Shown one piece after another: positions 1-7,470 of a DNA stretch of 7,470 nt. Below the pieces are notes generated by a model. The model was not told the origin of the DNA. It was given only the letters and a program-made list of their open reading frames with translations, and did no database searches. The DNA is from Amoebophrya sp. A120. Its lineage: Eukaryota > Protista > Dinoflagellata. Position 1 is the stretch's first letter. Each line of letters opens with the position of its first letter. Position numbers and translations under genes: made by a program. The stretch is from the NCBI GenBank assembly GCA_905178155.1, contig CAJINV010000101.1:1-7470 (forward strand), written 5' to 3'.

Positions 1-30
1 TTCCAGACCCAGACATATTTGCACTTGATA
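1..30. mobile_element. Right TIR of a family A introner (partial; same sequence as 7376-7405)
   Basis: TTCCAGACCCAGACATATTTGCACTTGATA followed by presumptive DR CACAA (31-35). Confidence 0.85.
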
Positions 31-383
31 CACAACGTCTCTCTGCAAGACTTGGTGAAACTTCTCTCCATCGCGTACTTCCCGTACGAGAGCGACAAGG
101 CACTCCACGCCGCGGTCCAGGATGAATTCACGCAATTTGACCACAGCAGCCCGGAAGTGACGGCCAACAGTACCACTACACAGAGCGGCACGGGTAATCG
201 ACTTCTAAATCAGCCCGAACAGATTTCCTCCCGGTCGCCATCTAAATTGTCGGAAGCGAGCGTGAAAAGCGACAAAACAACAAGCTCATCGACCACGAGC
301 GCGATTTCTGCCAAAACCTTGAATCTCCTCCGCACACCGACGAAGAAAGAGAGAACCCAGGCGCTGCTCCGGTTCCGCGAAGT
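31..383 (+). CDS. ovoA: ovoA exon 1 (first visible; N-terminal extension and Ser/Thr-rich linker)
   Basis: HNVSLQDLVKLLSIAYFPYESDK...KERTQALLRFREV, in frame with exon 2 after removal of 384-643. No ATG start; preceded by the right end of an introner. Confidence 0.75.
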
Positions 384-3300
384 TATCAACTGCAAATATG
401 TCTGGGTCTCGAAGAAGGCAAGATTTTTCATCCTCAGCTAGCATGATTCTCAAGTCTGTCATGCACGTTACCCAAGAGCCTCGCTTTTCTGTCATGCGGA
501 AACGCAGTTTGTCATGCAGAATAGACTACAGTCCGACCACATCAGAAACTTGTCATGCTGGAACGGCACTTGCGGCACCCTAATCATTCGCCAAACAGCA
601 TCACAAGTTTCCAGACCCAGACATATTTGCAGTTGATAGAAGTGTTGAAGCACCAATTCCTGCAGACCTTCAACATCTACGAACGGCTTTTCTCCACCAT
701 CGCGACCTATCATTTGTAAAAACGTCCCCACACCAGGGTTGTCATGCAGATTTGCAACGACAGGAACATTTGTGATGCGCATCTCCATGAAAGGTATTTT
801 TAGTCGTGTTTTGGAATTTGTAATGCTGTAACCAGGATAGGCCGATGGATTTGTGATGCGTTTGTCCTTGCTACCCTGCACTTCACTACGAACTCCAACT
901 TGTGATGCGTGAGAACCAAAACTTCTAGGTTTGTGTTGCAAAGTCCCCATCTTGACTCTGTCGTGGGGACGTTTTTCCTTTTGATACGACCCCCGGACTG
1001 TTCTACCGCGCGGAGCGGTTGCGACACCACTTGATTTTCTATCTCGGCCACACTGCGGTTTTTTACTGGAACAAACTGATCTCCGCTGGCTGGGTGTGTG
1101 CGAACCAGCGCTTGCACGAGAAATTTGAAGCGATTTTCGCAGTGGGGGTGGACGAAATGAGCTGGGACGACCTGTTGGAAGATAATTACGACTGGTGCGG
1201 GTTTTCGGTGGAGCAGCAAGAGAACTATCGGAAGGAAGTGGAACAGTACAGGGCTTCCGTGCGGGAAGAGGTGTGTCGCCTGATCGACGAGTACGTGCTG
1301 GAGGAAGATATCACTGTTGGTCGGACGAATCCACGGACTGCACCAGATGAAAACAACACCTCTTTCCTCGCCTTTCAACCGGACGAACGGACTGTGGAAA
1401 AAAAGAACAGCAACATGAAAAAACCACATCAGCTATCAATTGCAAATATGTCTGGGTCTGGAAACTCGTGATGCTAAAATGTGCATGATGGAACAACTTC
1501 CGAATGCAGACCAGCATGACAACTTTCCGAAGCACTTTCTGATATGCTGCCCGCATGAGAAACTGCGTTTTTGCATGACAAAAATGGGTGCGGCTTTTGT
1601 CGGTTATGCAATACAGATTTCCCGGGAATGTAAAGCTAGCATTACAAGTTCCAACTTTCCAGACCCAGACATATTTGCATTTGATATCAGCAAGTGCGCG
1701 ACAACGCGCCACTGTTAAAGGCGACTTGCGGGAAACTCGTGTCGGAGTACATTTTGAAGTATCAAAAGGAAAAATCCCCCCTCCCCATATCAAAACGAAA
1801 TTTCTGATGCTGGATTTGGATACACAAATCAAATTTGTGTTGCAGTAGAGGAATGCACGCAGATCCTGAGCCTAGGCGGGGGCCTTTTGGTGTAGGCGCC
1901 TAGCATAGTAGACGGCTACCTTGTAGGCCGCAGAGCATTACAAATCGCCTGCATAACGTGGCGGCCAGCCTGAGTGTGCCTGCTTGCAAGACAGACCCGA
2001 TTTGTGGTCACAAATCAGCAACACAAATTATCGGAAACATACCTTTTCGATATGGGGAGAGGGGATTTTTCCTTTCGATATAAAGTACTGCACAACTACG
2101 TCCGCTACCAGCAACTTAGGTGGTGGAACCAACAACGCCCCCCTTGCGAAGCAGTTGCAAAATACCATGATCTGGATTCTGCTGATGGGCGCCGAGCACG
2201 AAAAGATCCACCAAGAAACCAGCTGCCCCATCCTGTCCCAGATGCCCTTGCAATACTTGAACAAGACACACCGGTGGCTGTACCCGATGGCAGAAGTCAA
2301 GACAAGTTCGTCCTCTTACTACGAAAGATCCGGCAACCCGCTGGTGCCCGTGAAAATGACGAGCTTGCTGAACACGGAGGATGAAGAACCCGCGGTGCAG
2401 CTCAGGTTCGGGAAAAACCACCTCGAATCGGATTTCTACGGGTGGGACAACGAGTTTGACAGTGAGCAGGCGAGTTTGTTGCCGTTTCAGGTCAGCCAAA
2501 CGCTGGTGTCCAACGCGGAGTTTTTAGAATTTGTGTTGGACGACGGGTACAAAAAAAAGCACTTCTGGACGGAGGAAGGGTGGCGGTTCGTCCAGGACCT
2601 CAACGTGGACCGGCCGCGGTTCTTATGCAAGAAGAAAAGTGTGGAAGTGTGAGTCTGTAATGCATAAGTGCGTACCACAATTATCACTTGTCATGCTAGC
2701 CAGCCACGATGTCCTTTTTTCATGAGTGTTTTTGAGTACTAGCTGCGCATGACAGGATTTCTTTGTCATACAGAGCAAATTTGTCATGCAGTCATGGCAC
2801 AAGACACGTTCACTAAACACAGTTTTTTTCCTTTGGACACTTCTGGCTCGACGCGGATAACGAAGTCGAAATGCAAACCGGCCGACCGTATAAAATGTAA
2901 AAATGTCTGGGCCTGGAAGATTCCCAGGCCTGTCATGCAGATTTTCCATGATCCATGTCGTCTGGAATGCAGGACCTAGCATGACAGGTTCTGTGAGAGT
3001 TCTATCATGCCTATCCGGCATGAGAAACTGCCTCTCACTTAGATCAAAATTGGACAGCTTTTGGCATTCATGCAACACAGATTTTTGCACGATCCAGAAT
3101 TAGCATTACAAGTTGCAACCTTCCAGACCCAGACATATTTGCAGTTCATAGACCGGTGACCAGCAGCGTGACGAAAGCTGAGCTGGACCAGGTTTTACTA
3201 CAACTTGATGGTAAGAACAAAAACCACGAGCAGATGCAAAAGAAACAGGACAAGCACAAAAATTTCGTCTACCGGGCCATGCTCTCCATCATCCCCATGC

Positions 3301-6300
3301 CGTGGGACTGGCCGGCGGAGGTCAACTATGCACTGCAAATCTGTTTGGTGTTCTGGAACAATGCTTAAATTTGTCATGCCTTTCTAGCATGACAACTCTG
3401 AGGTTTCTTATGCCCTCTTGCCTGTCATGCAAAAACGCACTCTCGTCCCAACATGCGGAATTCGCAAAACATCAGAAATTTGTGATGCGTGGCTGCATTT
3501 TCAAGTACGCTCATCAATCGCAGACTTGCATCACAAGTTCGTCCCAGACCTAAACATTTTTGCATTTGATATGAACCAGCTCGAGGCAGCGGCGTTTTGC
3601 AAGTGGAAGGCGGAGAAATTGAGCCAGCCGGATTTGCGACTGCTGGGGCATCCAGAGCAACTGTACCTGGCGCTGCATTGCGAAAAGGGGTTTGGGAAGA
3701 ACGCAAATTTAGCAGGTTTTGCGTCGCCGACCAGCGTGAATGTGCACTATGGGTACAGCAATTGTAGTACACCGTCGGAGGTGGATTCATCATCGTCAAA
3801 TAACCCGAAAGAGAAAAAAACGAAAATCTACGACATTGAGGGGAATGTTTGGCGGCACTCGATCTCCGTACTCACCCTAATGGACGGGTTTCAGCCGCAC
3901 ATTGCCTACGACGATTTTACCCTCCCTACCATTGATGGGGAGCACAACTTTATCGCAAGAAAAACTGTCTCAGTCTCAAAACTTTGCAGACGCAGCAATA
4001 CAAATTTGCCAAGCAAGAAACAAAAAATCTGTGATGCGTTCAAACATCAAGGGATAACACGTAAGGAAGGACGTCTTTCTTGATGCATTTCCGGCATGAC
4101 AAAAAACTGTCTCAAGGAAGTTGCGCATTACAGCTTGAGAGTGAGTAGACTGTGACAGTTTTTTCTCGCGACAAGTTTTATCCTGGGCGGGTCCTGGACC
4201 AGTATTGGAAACTGCGCGAACCCGGGGTCCAGGTACGGGTTCCGCCGGCACTTTTACCAGTACGCAGGGATCCGATTCTGTAGCGACTTCGGCGGGAAAA
4301 ATCTGCCGGTACTTCTTGTTTTTCGTACGAACTTCTCGATGTAAGTTGTAGCCATTTTATACGGAGGACCTTTCGTCCAGTACAACGACCCACATGAGCT
4401 ATTCAAACTATTGTGTTCATAATTCACATTTTTGGGAACGACCGTTTAATTTGATGTTGATCACACGAGACAAAGCAGAAGAAACAACTTTTCACGGTCT
4501 TCTTCCACCTATCCCCTACGAAAAACCTCTCGTGGTCTTGCAATAAAAGGGCGAAATACTAGAAACGAGTCGGTACTAGAGTGGTGAAAGTATATGTGCT
4601 TGTCTCGCGCAAAAATACAGAGGCTTCATTTGTTCGACCTTCTCTCACCAAAAACAGATGATCCACACGTCTGCACCCAAGATCCACGCGGCGACCCCGC
4701 TGGGCGTGAAACTTTCGGAGCACTACTACGAACTGTACGAGAGTCCAAACGCACTGCTGGGGCTGGATCAAGCCTACCTCGAACAGTACTTGCAAAAAGA
4801 TCACAAGCCGGTGTCCAACTGGCCACGGCTCTTCGGCGAGATTGCTAGCTACGTCGTCGATGCGGTGCAGCAAGGGACGAAACAGGATGAAGGAGGACCA
4901 CAGCCAATAAACACGAATAACAACACGGGTTCCCCTATCCTGAGGAAAAACGTCCCCACCCCAGAGTTGTCATGCAGATTTGCAATGACAAGGAAATTTG
5001 TGATGCGCATACCCATGGTAGACATTTCCAATCGTATTTTGGAATTTGTGATGCTGATAACAGGATAAGCAAATGAATCTGTGATGCGGCTGCACTTGCT
5101 AACCTGCACTACACTGCGGAGTGCAACTTGTCATGCGTGACTCCCAAAACTCCTAGGTTTGTGTTGCAAAATCCCCATCCTGACTCTGGTGTGGGGACGT
5201 TTTTGCTCAGGATGTCCCCCCGCCTGAAAGTCCTGGTCGCAAACGGGTCCGTCGGTCGCTGCTCGTTGGATATCACACAGAAAAAAGCAGGCAGGTCAAA
5301 CTTGTAATGCGACAATAAATAGACAAAAAAAATCTGTGTTGCATGTCCTGAACGGCATGCTACGGGGTTGCGCATGACAGATTTTACTGCGTATTCATTT
5401 TTGCATCACAAACATGCCCTGCCTGGTTTTTTCTGTGGGATATTGGAGTTGTTGAAGAAGTGCAAGAAGCTCGACGTGACCCACACGGACCCTATCGAAT
5501 GCAAATATGTCTGGGTCTGGAAGGTCGCAAGACTTGTCATGCAGGTTTTCCATGACAAATGCGGTCTGTCACATATGAACTAGCATGACAGATTCTGCGC
5601 CACCTCTATCATGCATCGTCTGCATGAGAAACTGCCTCTCAACTTGGTCAAAAGTGGGCAGTTGTTGGTAATCACGCAACACAGATTTTTGCACTATCCA
5701 GAATTAGCATGACAAGTTCCAGCGTTCCAGACCCAGACATATTTGCAATGCATAGACCCAACGGCGAATCTGCTCGCCCCGTTACAAGAGCTGTTGGACT
5801 CGGGGAAAGTGCAGTGGCGACAGACGATCGAGGGCGAGATCTGCGACCAAAGGGAGTACTTGCTGATGTCGGACGATAAAAATTCTATCACAGACGACAA
5901 CCATGGCAGCAACAGCAACACCACAAAGTCTTTTTTAGAAAAAAACGACAACACCTGCAATTTGGTTCAGATCCAAGACTACAAAACGTCATTGAACAAG
6001 CTCCCGACGAACCAGACCTTCGACATTTTACTTGCCGATTTCCGCTACACGAACTGCGAAGAAGAGCTAGCTGTTATCGTAAGGAAAAATCCCCCCTCCC
6101 CATCTTGAAAAGAAAATTTGTGATGCTGATTTGTGACCACAAATCAGCTTTGTCTTGCGTACAAGGCAAACGGCACCCATGTGGCGCATTGGAAAGCGAG
6201 TCTGTCATCCGTTTTCGCCTATGGCAGACTTGTTTCCCATGCTCATCTGCTAGCCGGGTGAGTAGTCACATGGGCTCAGAATCTGCCGGCAACCTGTTGC

Positions 6301-7151
6301 TGCAATACAAAGCTCATTTGTGTACACAAATCCAGCAACACAAATTGTCTTTTGAATATGAGGTGGAGCTTTTTTCACTTTGATAGCCGCCCTCGCCTCC
6401 CGCTGCCACGGAGTTCTACTGCTCGCGACGCTGCATATCAAATGCAAATATGTCTGGGTCTGGAAACTTGTGATGCTAAAACGTGGATGATAGAAACAGT
6501 CCCGAATGCAACCCAGCATGACAACTTTCTAGAACGCTTTCTCATAGGAAATCCGCATGAGAAACTGCGTTTTTGTATGTACAAAAGAGGCCGCGACTTT
6601 TGCTGGTTACGCAATACAGATTTCCTAGGTATCGAAAGCAAGCATTACAAGTTCCAACCCTCCAGACCCAGACATATTTGCATTTGATACTGCACAAAGT
6701 CGAGCAGCTCCCCGGGTTCGAAAAGTCGGATTTGCTGGACAGCGTCCGCGCGGAGGCCCTCGGTTTTTTCACCTCCAATGGCGACCGGGAGCCGGAAAGG
6801 ACGAAATCTATCAAATGCAAAAATGTCTGGGTCTGGGAGATCGCGAGACTTGTCATGCTACTCTGGCATGACACTGGAATCTGTGTTGCGTAGCCGCATA
6901 GAGCTCCTCTTCCTTGTCATGCAAAAACGCAGTTTCTCATGCGGAGGACGCAATTCAGAACCACGAAAAAACTTGTCATGCTTGGCAGCGCATTACAGCG
7001 TGCTCGCTATTCCTTTCCTTGCATCACAAGTTTCAAGACCCAGACATATTTGCAATGCATAAAGTCCCATTGGAGACGAATGCGGGCGAAGGGGGTGGCG
7101 CACTTGGAGAAGCAAACGATCCACAAACACCAGTTTTTCCGCAGTTACCTT
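31..7151 (+). CDS. ovoA: OvoA-like 5-histidylcysteine sulfoxide synthase / methyltransferase (ovothiol synthase), multi-exon, 5' and 3' partial
   Basis: Manual join of 31-383, 644-707, 992-1433, 1692-1759, 2086-2623, 2845-2888, 3156-3326, 3577-3950, 4179-4308, 4658-4935, 5220-5270, 5448-5492, 5760-6074, 6391-6435, 6695-6808, 7067-7151 gives 3117 nt (1039 codons) with no stop. Motifs recognised from memory as OvoA-family, in the expected order: LRHHLIFYLGHT, FAVGVDEMSWDDL, MGAEHEKIHQETS (HX3HXE), YGWDNE, VSNAEFLEFV, MPWDWPAEVN, GNVW, YDDF, GGSWTSIGN, RRHFYQYAGIR, then a methyltransferase-like region. Exact junctions can slide within the 5-nt DRs. Confidence 0.92.
384..638. mobile_element. Family A TIR introner, 255 nt (non-canonical intron 1, orientation R)
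   Basis: Perfect 26-nt TIR TATCAACTGCAAATATGTCTGGGTCT; DR GAAGT at 379-383 and 639-643. Confidence 0.92.
644..707 (+). CDS. ovoA: ovoA exon 2
   Basis: LKHQFLQTFNIYERLFSTIAT, resembling the first helix of the OvoA DinB-like domain; in frame on both sides. Confidence 0.85.
708..986. mobile_element. Family B TIR introner, 279 nt (intron 2)
   Basis: TATCATTTGTAAAAACGTCCCCAC ... GTGGGGACGTTTTTCCTTTTGATA; DR CGACC at 703-707 and 987-991; colinear with and the same length as 4936-5214. Confidence 0.92.
992..1433 (+). CDS. ovoA: ovoA exon 3 (DinB-like domain)
   Basis: PGLFYRAERLRHHLIFYLGHTAVFYWNKL...FEAIFAVGVDEMSWDDL; overlaps ORF 1019..1471. Confidence 0.93.
1434..1686. mobile_element. Family A TIR introner, 253 nt (intron 3, orientation F)
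   Basis: TATCAATTGCAAATATGTCTGGGTCTGGAAA ... TTTCCAGACCCAGACATATTTGCATTTGATA; DR TCAGC at 1429-1433 and 1687-1691; close relative of 6436-6689. Confidence 0.92.
1692..1759 (+). CDS. ovoA: ovoA exon 4
   Basis: QVRDNAPLLKATCGKLVSEYILK; open and in frame between two elements; no recognised motif. Confidence 0.75.
1760..2080. mobile_element. Family C TIR introner, 321 nt (intron 4)
   Basis: TATCAAAAGGAAAAATCCCCCCTCCCCATATC ... GATATGGGGAGAGGGGATTTTTCCTTTCGATA; DR TGAAG (1755-1759) / TAAAG (2081-2085). Confidence 0.9.
2086..2623 (+). CDS. ovoA: ovoA exon 5 (HX3HXE iron motif, start of FGE-like domain)
   Basis: IWILLMGAEHEKIHQETS...FYGWDNEF...VSNAEFLEFVLDDGY...WTEEGW...RPRF; overlaps ORF 1984..2652. 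Confidence 0.93.
2624..2839. mobile_element. Degenerate TIR introner, 216 nt (intron 5, tentatively family D)
   Basis: TATGCAAGAAGAAAAGTGTG ... CACAGTTTTTTTCCTTTGGACA, a decayed IR; DR GTTCT (2619-2623) / CTTCT (2840-2844); internal TGTNATGC motifs. Confidence 0.75.
2845..2888 (+). CDS. ovoA: ovoA exon 6
   Basis: Completes PRF-W across the junction, then LDADNEVEMQTGRP; in frame. Confidence 0.8.
2889..3150. mobile_element. Family A TIR introner, 262 nt (intron 6, orientation F)
   Basis: TATAAAATGTAAAAATGTCTGGGCCTGGAAG ... CTTCCAGACCCAGACATATTTGCAGTTCATA; DR GACCG at 2884-2888 and 3151-3155; same length as and colinear with 5493-5754. Confidence 0.92.
3156..3326 (+). CDS. ovoA: ovoA exon 7
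   Basis: ...YRAMLSIIPMPWDWPAEVN; overlaps ORF 3156..3368. Confidence 0.9.
3327..3571. mobile_element. Family A TIR introner, 245 nt (intron 7, orientation R, decayed)
   Basis: TATGCACTGCAAATCTGTTTGG ... CCAGACCTAAACATTTTTGCATTTGATA; DR TCAAC (3322-3326) / TGAAC (3572-3576). Confidence 0.87.
3577..3950 (+). CDS. ovoA: ovoA exon 8 (FGE-like domain)
   Basis: QLEAAAFCKWK...YDIEGNVW...GFQPHIAYDDFTLPTIDGEHNF; overlaps ORF 3418..4083. Confidence 0.92.
3951..4173. mobile_element. Family D TIR introner, 223 nt (intron 8)
   Basis: TATCGCAAGAAAAACTGTCTCAGTCT ... AGACTGTGACAGTTTTTTCTCGCGACA; degenerate DR AACTT (3946-3950) / AGTTT (4174-4178); contains an in-frame stop (4081-4083). Confidence 0.85.
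4179..4308 (+). CDS. ovoA: ovoA exon 9 (end of FGE-like domain)
   Basis: ILGGSWTSIGNCANPGSRYGFRRHFYQYAGIRFCSDFGGKNLP; absent from the ORF track. The 3' boundary could instead be 4340. Confidence 0.88.
4309..4657 (+). other. Probable canonical GT-AG spliceosomal intron (intron 9)
   Basis: CCG|GTACTT ... AAAAACAG|ATG, phase 0, in frame; more AT-rich than the exons; no TIR, DR or TGTNATGC motif seen. An alternative in-frame pair is GTAAGT at 4341 with TACAG ending at 4620. Confidence 0.65.
4658..4935 (+). CDS. ovoA: ovoA exon 10 (start of methyltransferase-like region)
   Basis: MIHTSAPK...KLSEHYYE...NWPRLFGE...NTGSP, preceded by AAAAACAG; overlaps ORF 4658..5068. Confidence 0.78.
4936..5214. 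mobile_element. Family B TIR introner, 279 nt (intron 10)
   Basis: TATCCTGAGGAAAAACGTCCCCACCCCAGAGT ... ACTCTGGTGTGGGGACGTTTTTGCTCAGGATG; DR TCCCC at 4931-4935 and 5215-5219. Confidence 0.92.
5220..5270 (+). CDS. ovoA: ovoA exon 11 (degenerate SAM motif I)
   Basis: RLKVLVANGSVGRCSLE, comparable to the typical LDLGCAVGRxSFE. Confidence 0.82.
5271..5442. mobile_element. Family E TIR introner, 172 nt (intron 11)
   Basis: TATCACACAGAAAAAAGCAGGCAGG ... CCTGCCTGGTTTTTTCTGTGGGATA; DR TTGGA at 5266-5270 and 5443-5447. Confidence 0.9.
5448..5492 (+). CDS. ovoA: ovoA exon 12
   Basis: LLKKCKKLDVTHTDP; in frame on both sides. Confidence 0.8.
5493..5754. mobile_element. Family A TIR introner, 262 nt (intron 12, orientation F)
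   Basis: TATCGAATGCAAATATGTCTGGGTCTGGAA ... TTCCAGACCCAGACATATTTGCAATGCATA; DR GACCC at 5488-5492 and 5755-5759. Confidence 0.92.
5760..6074 (+). CDS. ovoA: ovoA exon 13
   Basis: TANLLAPLQELLDSGKVQWRQTIEGEI...FDILLADFRY...EELAV; overlaps ORF 5743..6108. Confidence 0.82.
6075..6385. mobile_element. Family C TIR introner, 311 nt (intron 13, inverted relative to intron 4)
   Basis: TATCGTAAGGAAAAATCCCCCCTCCCCATC ... ATATGAGGTGGAGCTTTTTTCACTTTGATA; DR GCTGT (6070-6074) / GCCGC (6386-6390). Confidence 0.85.
6391..6435 (+). CDS. ovoA: ovoA exon 14
   Basis: LASRCHGVLLLATLH, comparable to the methyltransferase LxPGGxLxL strand; in frame. Confidence 0.78.
6436..6689. mobile_element. Family A TIR introner, 254 nt (intron 14, orientation F)
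   Basis: Perfect TIR TATCAAATGCAAATATGTCTGGGTCTGGA; DR CTGCA at 6431-6435 and 6690-6694. Confidence 0.93.
6695..6808 (+). CDS. ovoA: ovoA exon 15
   Basis: KVEQLPGFEKSDLLDSVRAEALGFFTSNGDREPERTKS; in frame. Confidence 0.78.
6809..7061. mobile_element. Family A TIR introner, 253 nt (intron 15, orientation R)
   Basis: TATCAAATGCAAAAATGTCTGGGTCT ... AGACCCAGACATATTTGCAATGCATA; DR AAATC (6804-6808) / AAGTC (7062-7066). Confidence 0.92.
7067..7151 (+). CDS. ovoA: ovoA exon 16 (last visible, near C-terminus)
   Basis: HWRRMRAKGVAHLEKQTIHKHQFFRSYL, loosely similar to the OvoA C-terminal VPFVIRETxRKFQH segment; no stop codon reached. Confidence 0.72.
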
Positions 7152-7405
7152 TATCAAATGCAAATATGTCTGGTTCTGGAAGGGTGTAAGTTGTAATGCT
7201 GCATTTGGATTCCAAAAAAAATCTGTGTTGCAGGAATAGCAAAAGGGGTGCGTTTTTTGCCACGCGGAGGGAGTATTTCTCATGCAGTATGGGCATCAGA
7301 AAGCCGTCACAATATCTGTGACGCTAGGGCATGCATCACAGACATCGCCGGTGATACAAAATGTGCATGACAAACTTCCAGACCCAGACATATTTGCACT
7401 TGATA
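7152..7405. mobile_element. Family A TIR element, 254 nt, apparently hybrid (closes the circle; orientation R)
   Basis: Normal TIRs, but the flanks ACCTT (7147-7151) and CACAA (7406-7410) do not match and the junction is out of frame. Confidence 0.85.
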
Positions 7406-7470
7406 CACAACGTCTCTCTGCAAGACTTGGTGAAACTTCTCTCCATCGCGTACTTCCCGTACGAGAGCGA
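7376..7470 (+). repeat. Exact 95-nt terminal direct repeat of 1-95 (circular or tandem contig overlap; unit 7375 bp)
   Basis: TTCCAGACCC...GTACGAGAGCGA is identical at both ends of the window. Confidence 0.95.

Follow-up and report, generated by a model that had tools for sequence, protein, structure and literature searches.

The stretch analysed here, referred to as the window, comprises the 7,470 nucleotides of contig CAJINV010000101.1 (assembly GCA_905178155.1) of the dinoflagellate Amoebophrya sp. A120, and it carries a fragment of a gene for an OvoA-like sulfoxide synthase/methyltransferase on the + strand (31..7150; 16 exons, 1038 codons). The gene is interrupted by 15 elements of 172-321 nt, each with terminal inverted repeats (TIRs) and flanking direct repeats (DRs), and by one GT-AG intron at 4309-4657 (Table 1). 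The element ends are mostly inverted TAT...ATA motifs with the 5-nt DRs immediately outside, and taking out every element with one DR, together with the GT-AG intron, leaves a stop-free + strand frame of 3117 nt. The public Amoebophrya sp. A120 protein P0001 is 100% identical to one window exon and shares 728 + 187 (= 915) identical residues with the spliced window model, spanning 11 of its 15 junctions; it matches OvoA 8khq at E 6.9e-90. The elements are the introner elements published for this organism by Farhat et al. 2021 (PMC7789003), and they show the features of miniature inverted-repeat transposable elements (MITEs): TIRs, target site duplications (TSDs), short length, many copies and no coding capacity. 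The TIRs measure 25-30 nt, with a terminal inverted match of 12-29 of 30 nt in all 15 elements, and the DRs are perfect 5-mers in 8 of the 15, match at 4/5 positions in 4 and at 3/5 in 2, the remaining one being misjoined.

Copies of the same family lie in both orientations within this single gene. The first-pass annotation had proposed this from an internal marker of family A, and its ten coordinate pairs are all exact element ends. The marker reads forward and exact at 1554, 3019, 5623 and 6556, and reversed in four further copies, exactly at 6929, with 1 mismatch at 504 and in decayed form in 3327-3571 (3/14 mismatches) and 7152-7405 (4/14). When all copies were aligned, the eight oriented family A copies lined up end to end, four forward and four reverse. 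Pairwise alignments of the family A interiors, with the TIRs trimmed, gave the predicted orientation in 26 of 28 cases, and the two misses both involve the decayed 3327 copy, at near-shuffle scores. The two family C copies are mutually inverted, as had also been proposed, with a score of 220 in the inverted alignment vs 172 in the direct one and 204 of 322 columns identical. The decayed E elements (2624-2839 and 3951-4173) have mirrored motif maps and may likewise be mutually inverted.

The same arrangement was found beyond the window. A pattern scan returned 145 loci (L001-L145), 144 of them in one public assembly, whose best copies have 68-91% identity to the window copies; filtering and de-duplication reduced 528 raw element calls to 379 unique elements, and a codon model (99% consistent within loci) assigned the host strand with confidence for 332 of them, leaving 47 without. 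Run on 231 kb of shuffled DNA, the element finder made 8 matches before filtering, and in the window it overlooked 3 of the 15 elements. Relative to the gene, forward and reverse copies number 66:98 in family A, 13:17 in B, 12:10 in C and 3:2 in D, and both orientations are present in 21 of the 34 loci with at least two A copies. Splicing in these loci was judged from restored frames, not from RNA: frames of at least 30 codons on both sides are restored for 47 of 66 forward and 64 of 98 reverse A copies. Among the A copies, those closest to 7152 (14:33) and to 6809 (10:21) are mostly reverse, and those closest to 2889 are even (27:26). Searches of viral contigs and of Rfam returned no matches.

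Removal of the elements was followed in public contigs, of which the X3 and X7 sets, from different samples of one study, were labelled RNA by guess, and X1, of unrecorded kind, is DNA-like. Eight anchor points place an X3 contig (6083 nt, depth 324) on the spliced model at a single constant offset, and between 4174 and 7470 this contig has seven direct joints, which include those of the forward copies 5493 and 6436, the reverse copy 6809, the inverted C copy 6075 and the GT-AG intron; five of the seven are seen in X7 too. The X3 contig contains none of the four forward A copies and none of the reverse copies 384, 3327 and 6809, only the 5' side being visible for 7152. This transcript-like contig lacks every element together with one of its DRs, whichever the orientation. 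Since the GT-AG intron is also missing from it, X3 behaves as an mRNA.

The first-pass annotation had also suggested excision at the DNA level, as with ciliate internal eliminated sequences (IESs), after which an element-free somatic gene would be transcribed. IESs have TA-starting ends and a transposon origin and are removed precisely, leaving the DNA with one TA. The TA-starting inverted ends and the indifference to orientation would suit such excision; so would the unrecorded kind of X1, the loss of rare forms from contigs and the 1148 X1 joints beyond those listed. Against this, X1 contigs at depth 39-48 continue from exons into elements, one covers the whole reverse copy 3327 (depth 41.3), and element words reach a summed depth of about 10^5. 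Because these DNA-like contigs keep elements at exon depth, and X3 is without the elements and the GT-AG intron alike, bulk excision from DNA is not supported, though rare or stage-specific forms would escape such contigs, and removal is likely to take place at the RNA level. The junctions, moreover, retain no TA, and Amoebophrya is not known to have a separate somatic nucleus; we regard the DNA-level route as very improbable. Other X3 contigs match the interior of the reverse copy 7152 (window 7197-7398) at depth 21-25 vs 324 for the mRNA, possibly as partial retention or as excised RNA.

That copy, 7152-7405, also lies at an artefact. Window 1-95 equals window 7376-7470, so the contig closes as a circle; however, the X3 contig leaves the window at 7150 for an exon outside it and enters at 7406/31 from another outside exon, and P0001 has the same outside neighbours for the first and last window exons. 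Because both give neighbours that differ from those of the circle, the latter is an assembly misjoin, in which two family A copies were fused within or close to the last TIR; a real DNA minicircle or a permuted gene was rejected. What had been read as one reverse copy is so in part: its interior is reversed relative to the gene, but its tip and right flank belong to another family A copy (flanks ACCTT and CACAA mismatch). Introner-rich genes could give rise to false circles during assembly. The misjoin, the X3 match to the reverse 7152 interior (depth 21 vs 324) and the 66:98 ratio of family A could together be taken to mean that only one orientation splices well, with the other poorly removed, or that the mixture is an assembly artefact. 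Such an explanation has very little likelihood in our view, as neither the same X3 contig nor P0001 contains the reverse copies 384, 3327 and 6809, and open frames after removal are alike for forward and reverse copies in the related loci.

The cut was placed by means of the mismatched DRs, read in the transcript direction. It follows DR base 2 or a later base in 1760 and 3327, and base 3 or a later one in 3951 and 6809; in 6075 it follows base 3 or base 4, and in 7152 it does not lie beyond base 4. Where the DRs differ, then, the cut keeps to one off-centre register, past DR base 3 or 4. Base 4, which would leave one nucleotide ahead of the stem and four behind it, is likely because T is second in all 9 predominant A120 splice sites (Farhat Table S4, PMC7789003). 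Canonical U2 ends do not fit, with GT-AG in 0 of the 15 window elements at cut 3 or cut 4, and no enrichment of GT, GC or AG was seen in 277 perfect DRs. An excess of G at DR bases 4-5 (35% and 37% vs 29%) was not accepted as a splice signal, since bases 1-2 show an equal rise in C, which fits a palindromic target preference, and the directions of DR mismatches (58 events) were uninformative. The sole element without T as its first 5' base, L134:294-552, starts with CAT, and its preceding G would give a GC donor under a base-4 cut.

Table 1. Elements and canonical intron of the window, with their direct repeats and the contig evidence for removal
Feature	Position	Strand	Direct repeats (DR) and evidence
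Family A	384..638	-	DR GAAGT/GAAGT; absent from X3 contig (length arithmetic) and P0001
Family B	708..986		DR CGACC; absent from X3 contig and P0001
Family A	1434..1686	+	DR TCAGC; absent from X3 contig and P0001
Family C, reference orientation	1760..2080	+	DR TGAAG/TAAAG
Decayed element E	2624..2839		DR GTTCT/CTTCT; 3' end ACA; 43-nt gap in X3 and X7 contigs
Family A	2889..3150	+	DR GACCG
Family A, decayed	3327..3571	-	DR TCAAC/TGAAC; X3 pieces 3151-3323 and 3574-3948 adjoin
Decayed element E	3951..4173		DR AACTT/AGTTT; 3' end ACA
Canonical GT-AG intron, no TIR, internal control	4309..4657	+	X3 joint 4307-4657, GT..AG
Family B, oriented as 708	4936..5214		DR TCCCC; 3' end ATG; joint 4930-5215
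Family D	5271..5442		DR TTGGA; joint 5265-5443 in X3 and X7
Family A	5493..5754	+	DR GACCC; joint 5487-5755 in X3 and X7
Family C, inverted to 1760	6075..6385	-	DR GCTGT/GCCGC; joint 6072-6389; sets cut after DR base 3 or 4
Family A	6436..6689	+	DR CTGCA; joint 6430-6690 in X3 and X7; fold z -11.3
Family A	6809..7061	-	DR AAATC/AAGTC; joint 6806-7065 in X3 and X7; fold z -5.5
Family A	7152..7405	-	Tip and right flank from another copy (misjoin)

With forward and reverse copies alike removed, the interior goes unread and cannot carry the signal, and in this the first-pass annotation, which had placed recognition in the TIR ends, was right. Its further step, from removal in both orientations to a strand-symmetric removal, does not follow: the TIRs put the same ends in place in either orientation, so that indifference to orientation does not imply symmetric chemistry; they can hold directional signals, the cut is off-centre, and spliceosomal introners working both ways are described.

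We therefore favour, with some reserve, a relaxed spliceosome that would read signals carried in the TIRs, the same in either orientation. The element would insert, presumably by DNA transposition, in either direction with a 5-bp target duplication, the anatomy of which is seen in the copies, and the pre-mRNA then reads DR-UAU-N7-AAA ... UUU-N7-AUA-DR either way; a long end-to-end stem is predicted, and in predicted folds all window elements do pair end to end. Removal would proceed on this RNA at the fixed off-centre register, after DR base 3 or 4. At the 5' end N|UAU would act as a donor complete but for the +1 G. With no AG, the 3' end would be defined by its distance of 4 nt from AUA, and the first A of AUA (-7) would be the candidate branch point, the interior being ignored.

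The ends themselves offer hints of a direction, first noticed in the window and then tested in the related loci. The three end deviations in the window are all at the 3' end and spare the first A of ATA, and in the related loci TIR base 1 deviates in 1 of 332 elements at the 5' end vs 8 at the 3' end, and base 3 in 9 vs 2 (Fisher p=0.0055). End conservation thus appears, weakly, to follow the transcript direction (U at +2 of the 5' end, A at the 3' end). The 30 canonical donors predicted in silico, a noisy set, read G|GTA(T/C), with A at +3 in 80% and T at +4 in 46%, and the directional ends together with the likeness of N|TAT to these donors are suggestive of a spliceosome. N|TATC also resembles the U12 donor. 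In A120, 83 of 89 spliceosomal proteins and the U2, U4, U5 and U6 small nuclear RNAs (snRNAs) were found, with no U1 and no minor spliceosome reported, and 15% of the canonical introns have an inverted repeat (IR)/DR structure (PMC7789003).

These same data bear on a second RNA-level route, possible and to our minds clearly the less probable, which would dispense with the spliceosome: a nuclease and a ligase, or the RNA itself, would take the base of the TIR stem as a reference, cleave 1 nt upstream and 4 nt downstream of the stem, and link the exons. Such a route needs neither GT nor AG, and in 15 of 15 elements the first 30 nt include 18-30 that pair with the other end, vs 0 for the GT-AG intron. 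The motifs at the two ends come close to symmetry, no U1 snRNA was detected in A120 (PMC7789003), and the nonconventional introns of euglenids, for which such a route has been proposed, provide a precedent (PMC11282704). On the other hand, the 5' N|TAT fits the predicted canonical donors, end conservation is directional, no more than 35-50% of copies have TIR bases 4, 5 and 7 paired, with no wobble bias, and the spliceosome of A120 is nearly complete (PMC7789003). Doubtful, too, is the bolder claim of a splicing route blind to exon and junction sequence and to orientation, in which a stem capped by TAT-N7-AAA and cut at a fixed distance would be processed by a non-lariat chemistry new to eukaryotic mRNA. 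If a stem-measuring route did operate, insertions would be harmless at any site and in either direction.

Several observations weigh against the relaxed spliceosome, or against the data on which it is built. The directional signal amounts to 20 deviant ends, with single positions reaching only p=0.04 and p=0.07; two of these ends are in one locus and some are possibly boundary errors. No branch consensus was found around the candidate A, the second base before it being T in only 46%, and a branch at -7 within a stable stem would be sterically awkward. Selection on the RNA stem was not detected: a comparison of G-U with A-C gave no signal (ratio 1.17, p=0.2; vs interior p=0.55), and arm-versus-arm decay was not significant (p=0.14). 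The register may instead mirror with the element, since all four forward A copies have perfect DRs. The RNA label of X3 and X7 is a guess and both come from one study, while the raw RNA runs gave no exon coverage (X9, 41 reads with 0 on exons; X10 and X11, 0 reads). Finally, reverse copies are modestly over-represented in family A (p=0.015). A raw asymmetric count at TIR bases 15-28 was discarded, being lost when counted per element.

Some further features of the elements and of their host were recorded. A degenerate 8-mer resembling TGTCATGC is common to all families (14.9/kb in elements vs 0.11/kb in flanks, window plus L001-L145), with a spacing of 31-33 nt, about three DNA turns, in 301 of 738 same-direction gaps; these TGTCATGC-like 8-mers are possibly binding sites for a transposase or for chromatin. 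P0001 lacks three exons (123 residues, window 4658-5490, where the other 4 junctions lie) that the X3 contig has, probably through an annotation error. Its residues 1-618, upstream of window 31, form a long N-terminal extension with no Pfam match at E 0.001, which may reflect a fusion or a merged gene model, and its best methyltransferase match sits downstream of the window. A Pfam match of exon 1 to a CDI domain (E 0.008, under the cut-off) was taken as chance.

How Amoebophrya introns without GT-AG, 60% or more of the total, are removed was stated as open by Farhat et al. (PMC7789003). Our results narrow this question to a removal at the RNA level, with an irrelevant interior, a fixed register and two testable bases, U at +2 and A at -7; neutrality at any exon site and in either direction would explain the spread of about 30,000 copies. 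For Amoebophrya, there appears to be no earlier report of removal in both orientations, of a fixed register or of directional end bases. The gain is a sharper model, not a new system, because the elements, the hairpin idea and two-way introners elsewhere are already in print.

Among known systems, ciliate IESs share the TA-starting ends, but here the element is kept in the DNA and a 5-nt DR is left, with no TA at the junction. Euglenid nonconventional introns resemble the A120 elements in the TIR stem joining their ends, the TSD-like repeats, the non-canonical junctions and a proposed MITE origin; they have CAG/CTG at +4..6/-8..6 and come out as circles, whereas the end logos here are without CAG/CTG (PMC11282704). 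The introns of Fritillaria borealis are also MITE-derived, with TIRs and TSDs, and are removed by an adapted spliceosome; they prefer AG-AC/AG-AT ends, whereas no dinucleotide preference beyond T at +2 is seen here (PMC11282704).

The closest relatives are the published A120 introner elements themselves, described with the same IRs and 3-5 nt DRs, TAT-N7-AAA, non-canonical sites, a hairpin model and a length of about 250 nt (PMC7789003). The window elements likewise show inverted end pairing (published as 8-20 nt), 3-5 nt DRs, TAT-N7-AAA and families of RNA-supported non-canonical introns. That paper calls the splice sites variable relative to the hairpin, whereas in the window the cut keeps to DR base 3-4; in the sections, passages and supplement text covered, element orientation relative to the gene was not found ('strand' gives 0 matches, and the passages on orientation deal with genes), and its figures S19-S25 may bear on register and orientation. 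A literature search, subscription papers excepted, yielded no report of Amoebophrya elements being spliced from both orientations. The method of PMC9860276 allows opposite-orientation pairs. Spliceosomal introners working in either orientation are described in Polarella glacialis and, by citation, in Aureococcus anophagefferens, where, like here, TSD-flanked elements form introns both ways (10.1101/2020.10.14.339549). Their GT/GC/GA donors and AG acceptors come from the element or from a constrained TSD, whereas the DR here is unconstrained and there is no canonical site; every two-way class (6, 8, 10) of the described group shows an orientation bias, whereas families B and C are unbiased here (10.1101/2020.10.14.339549).

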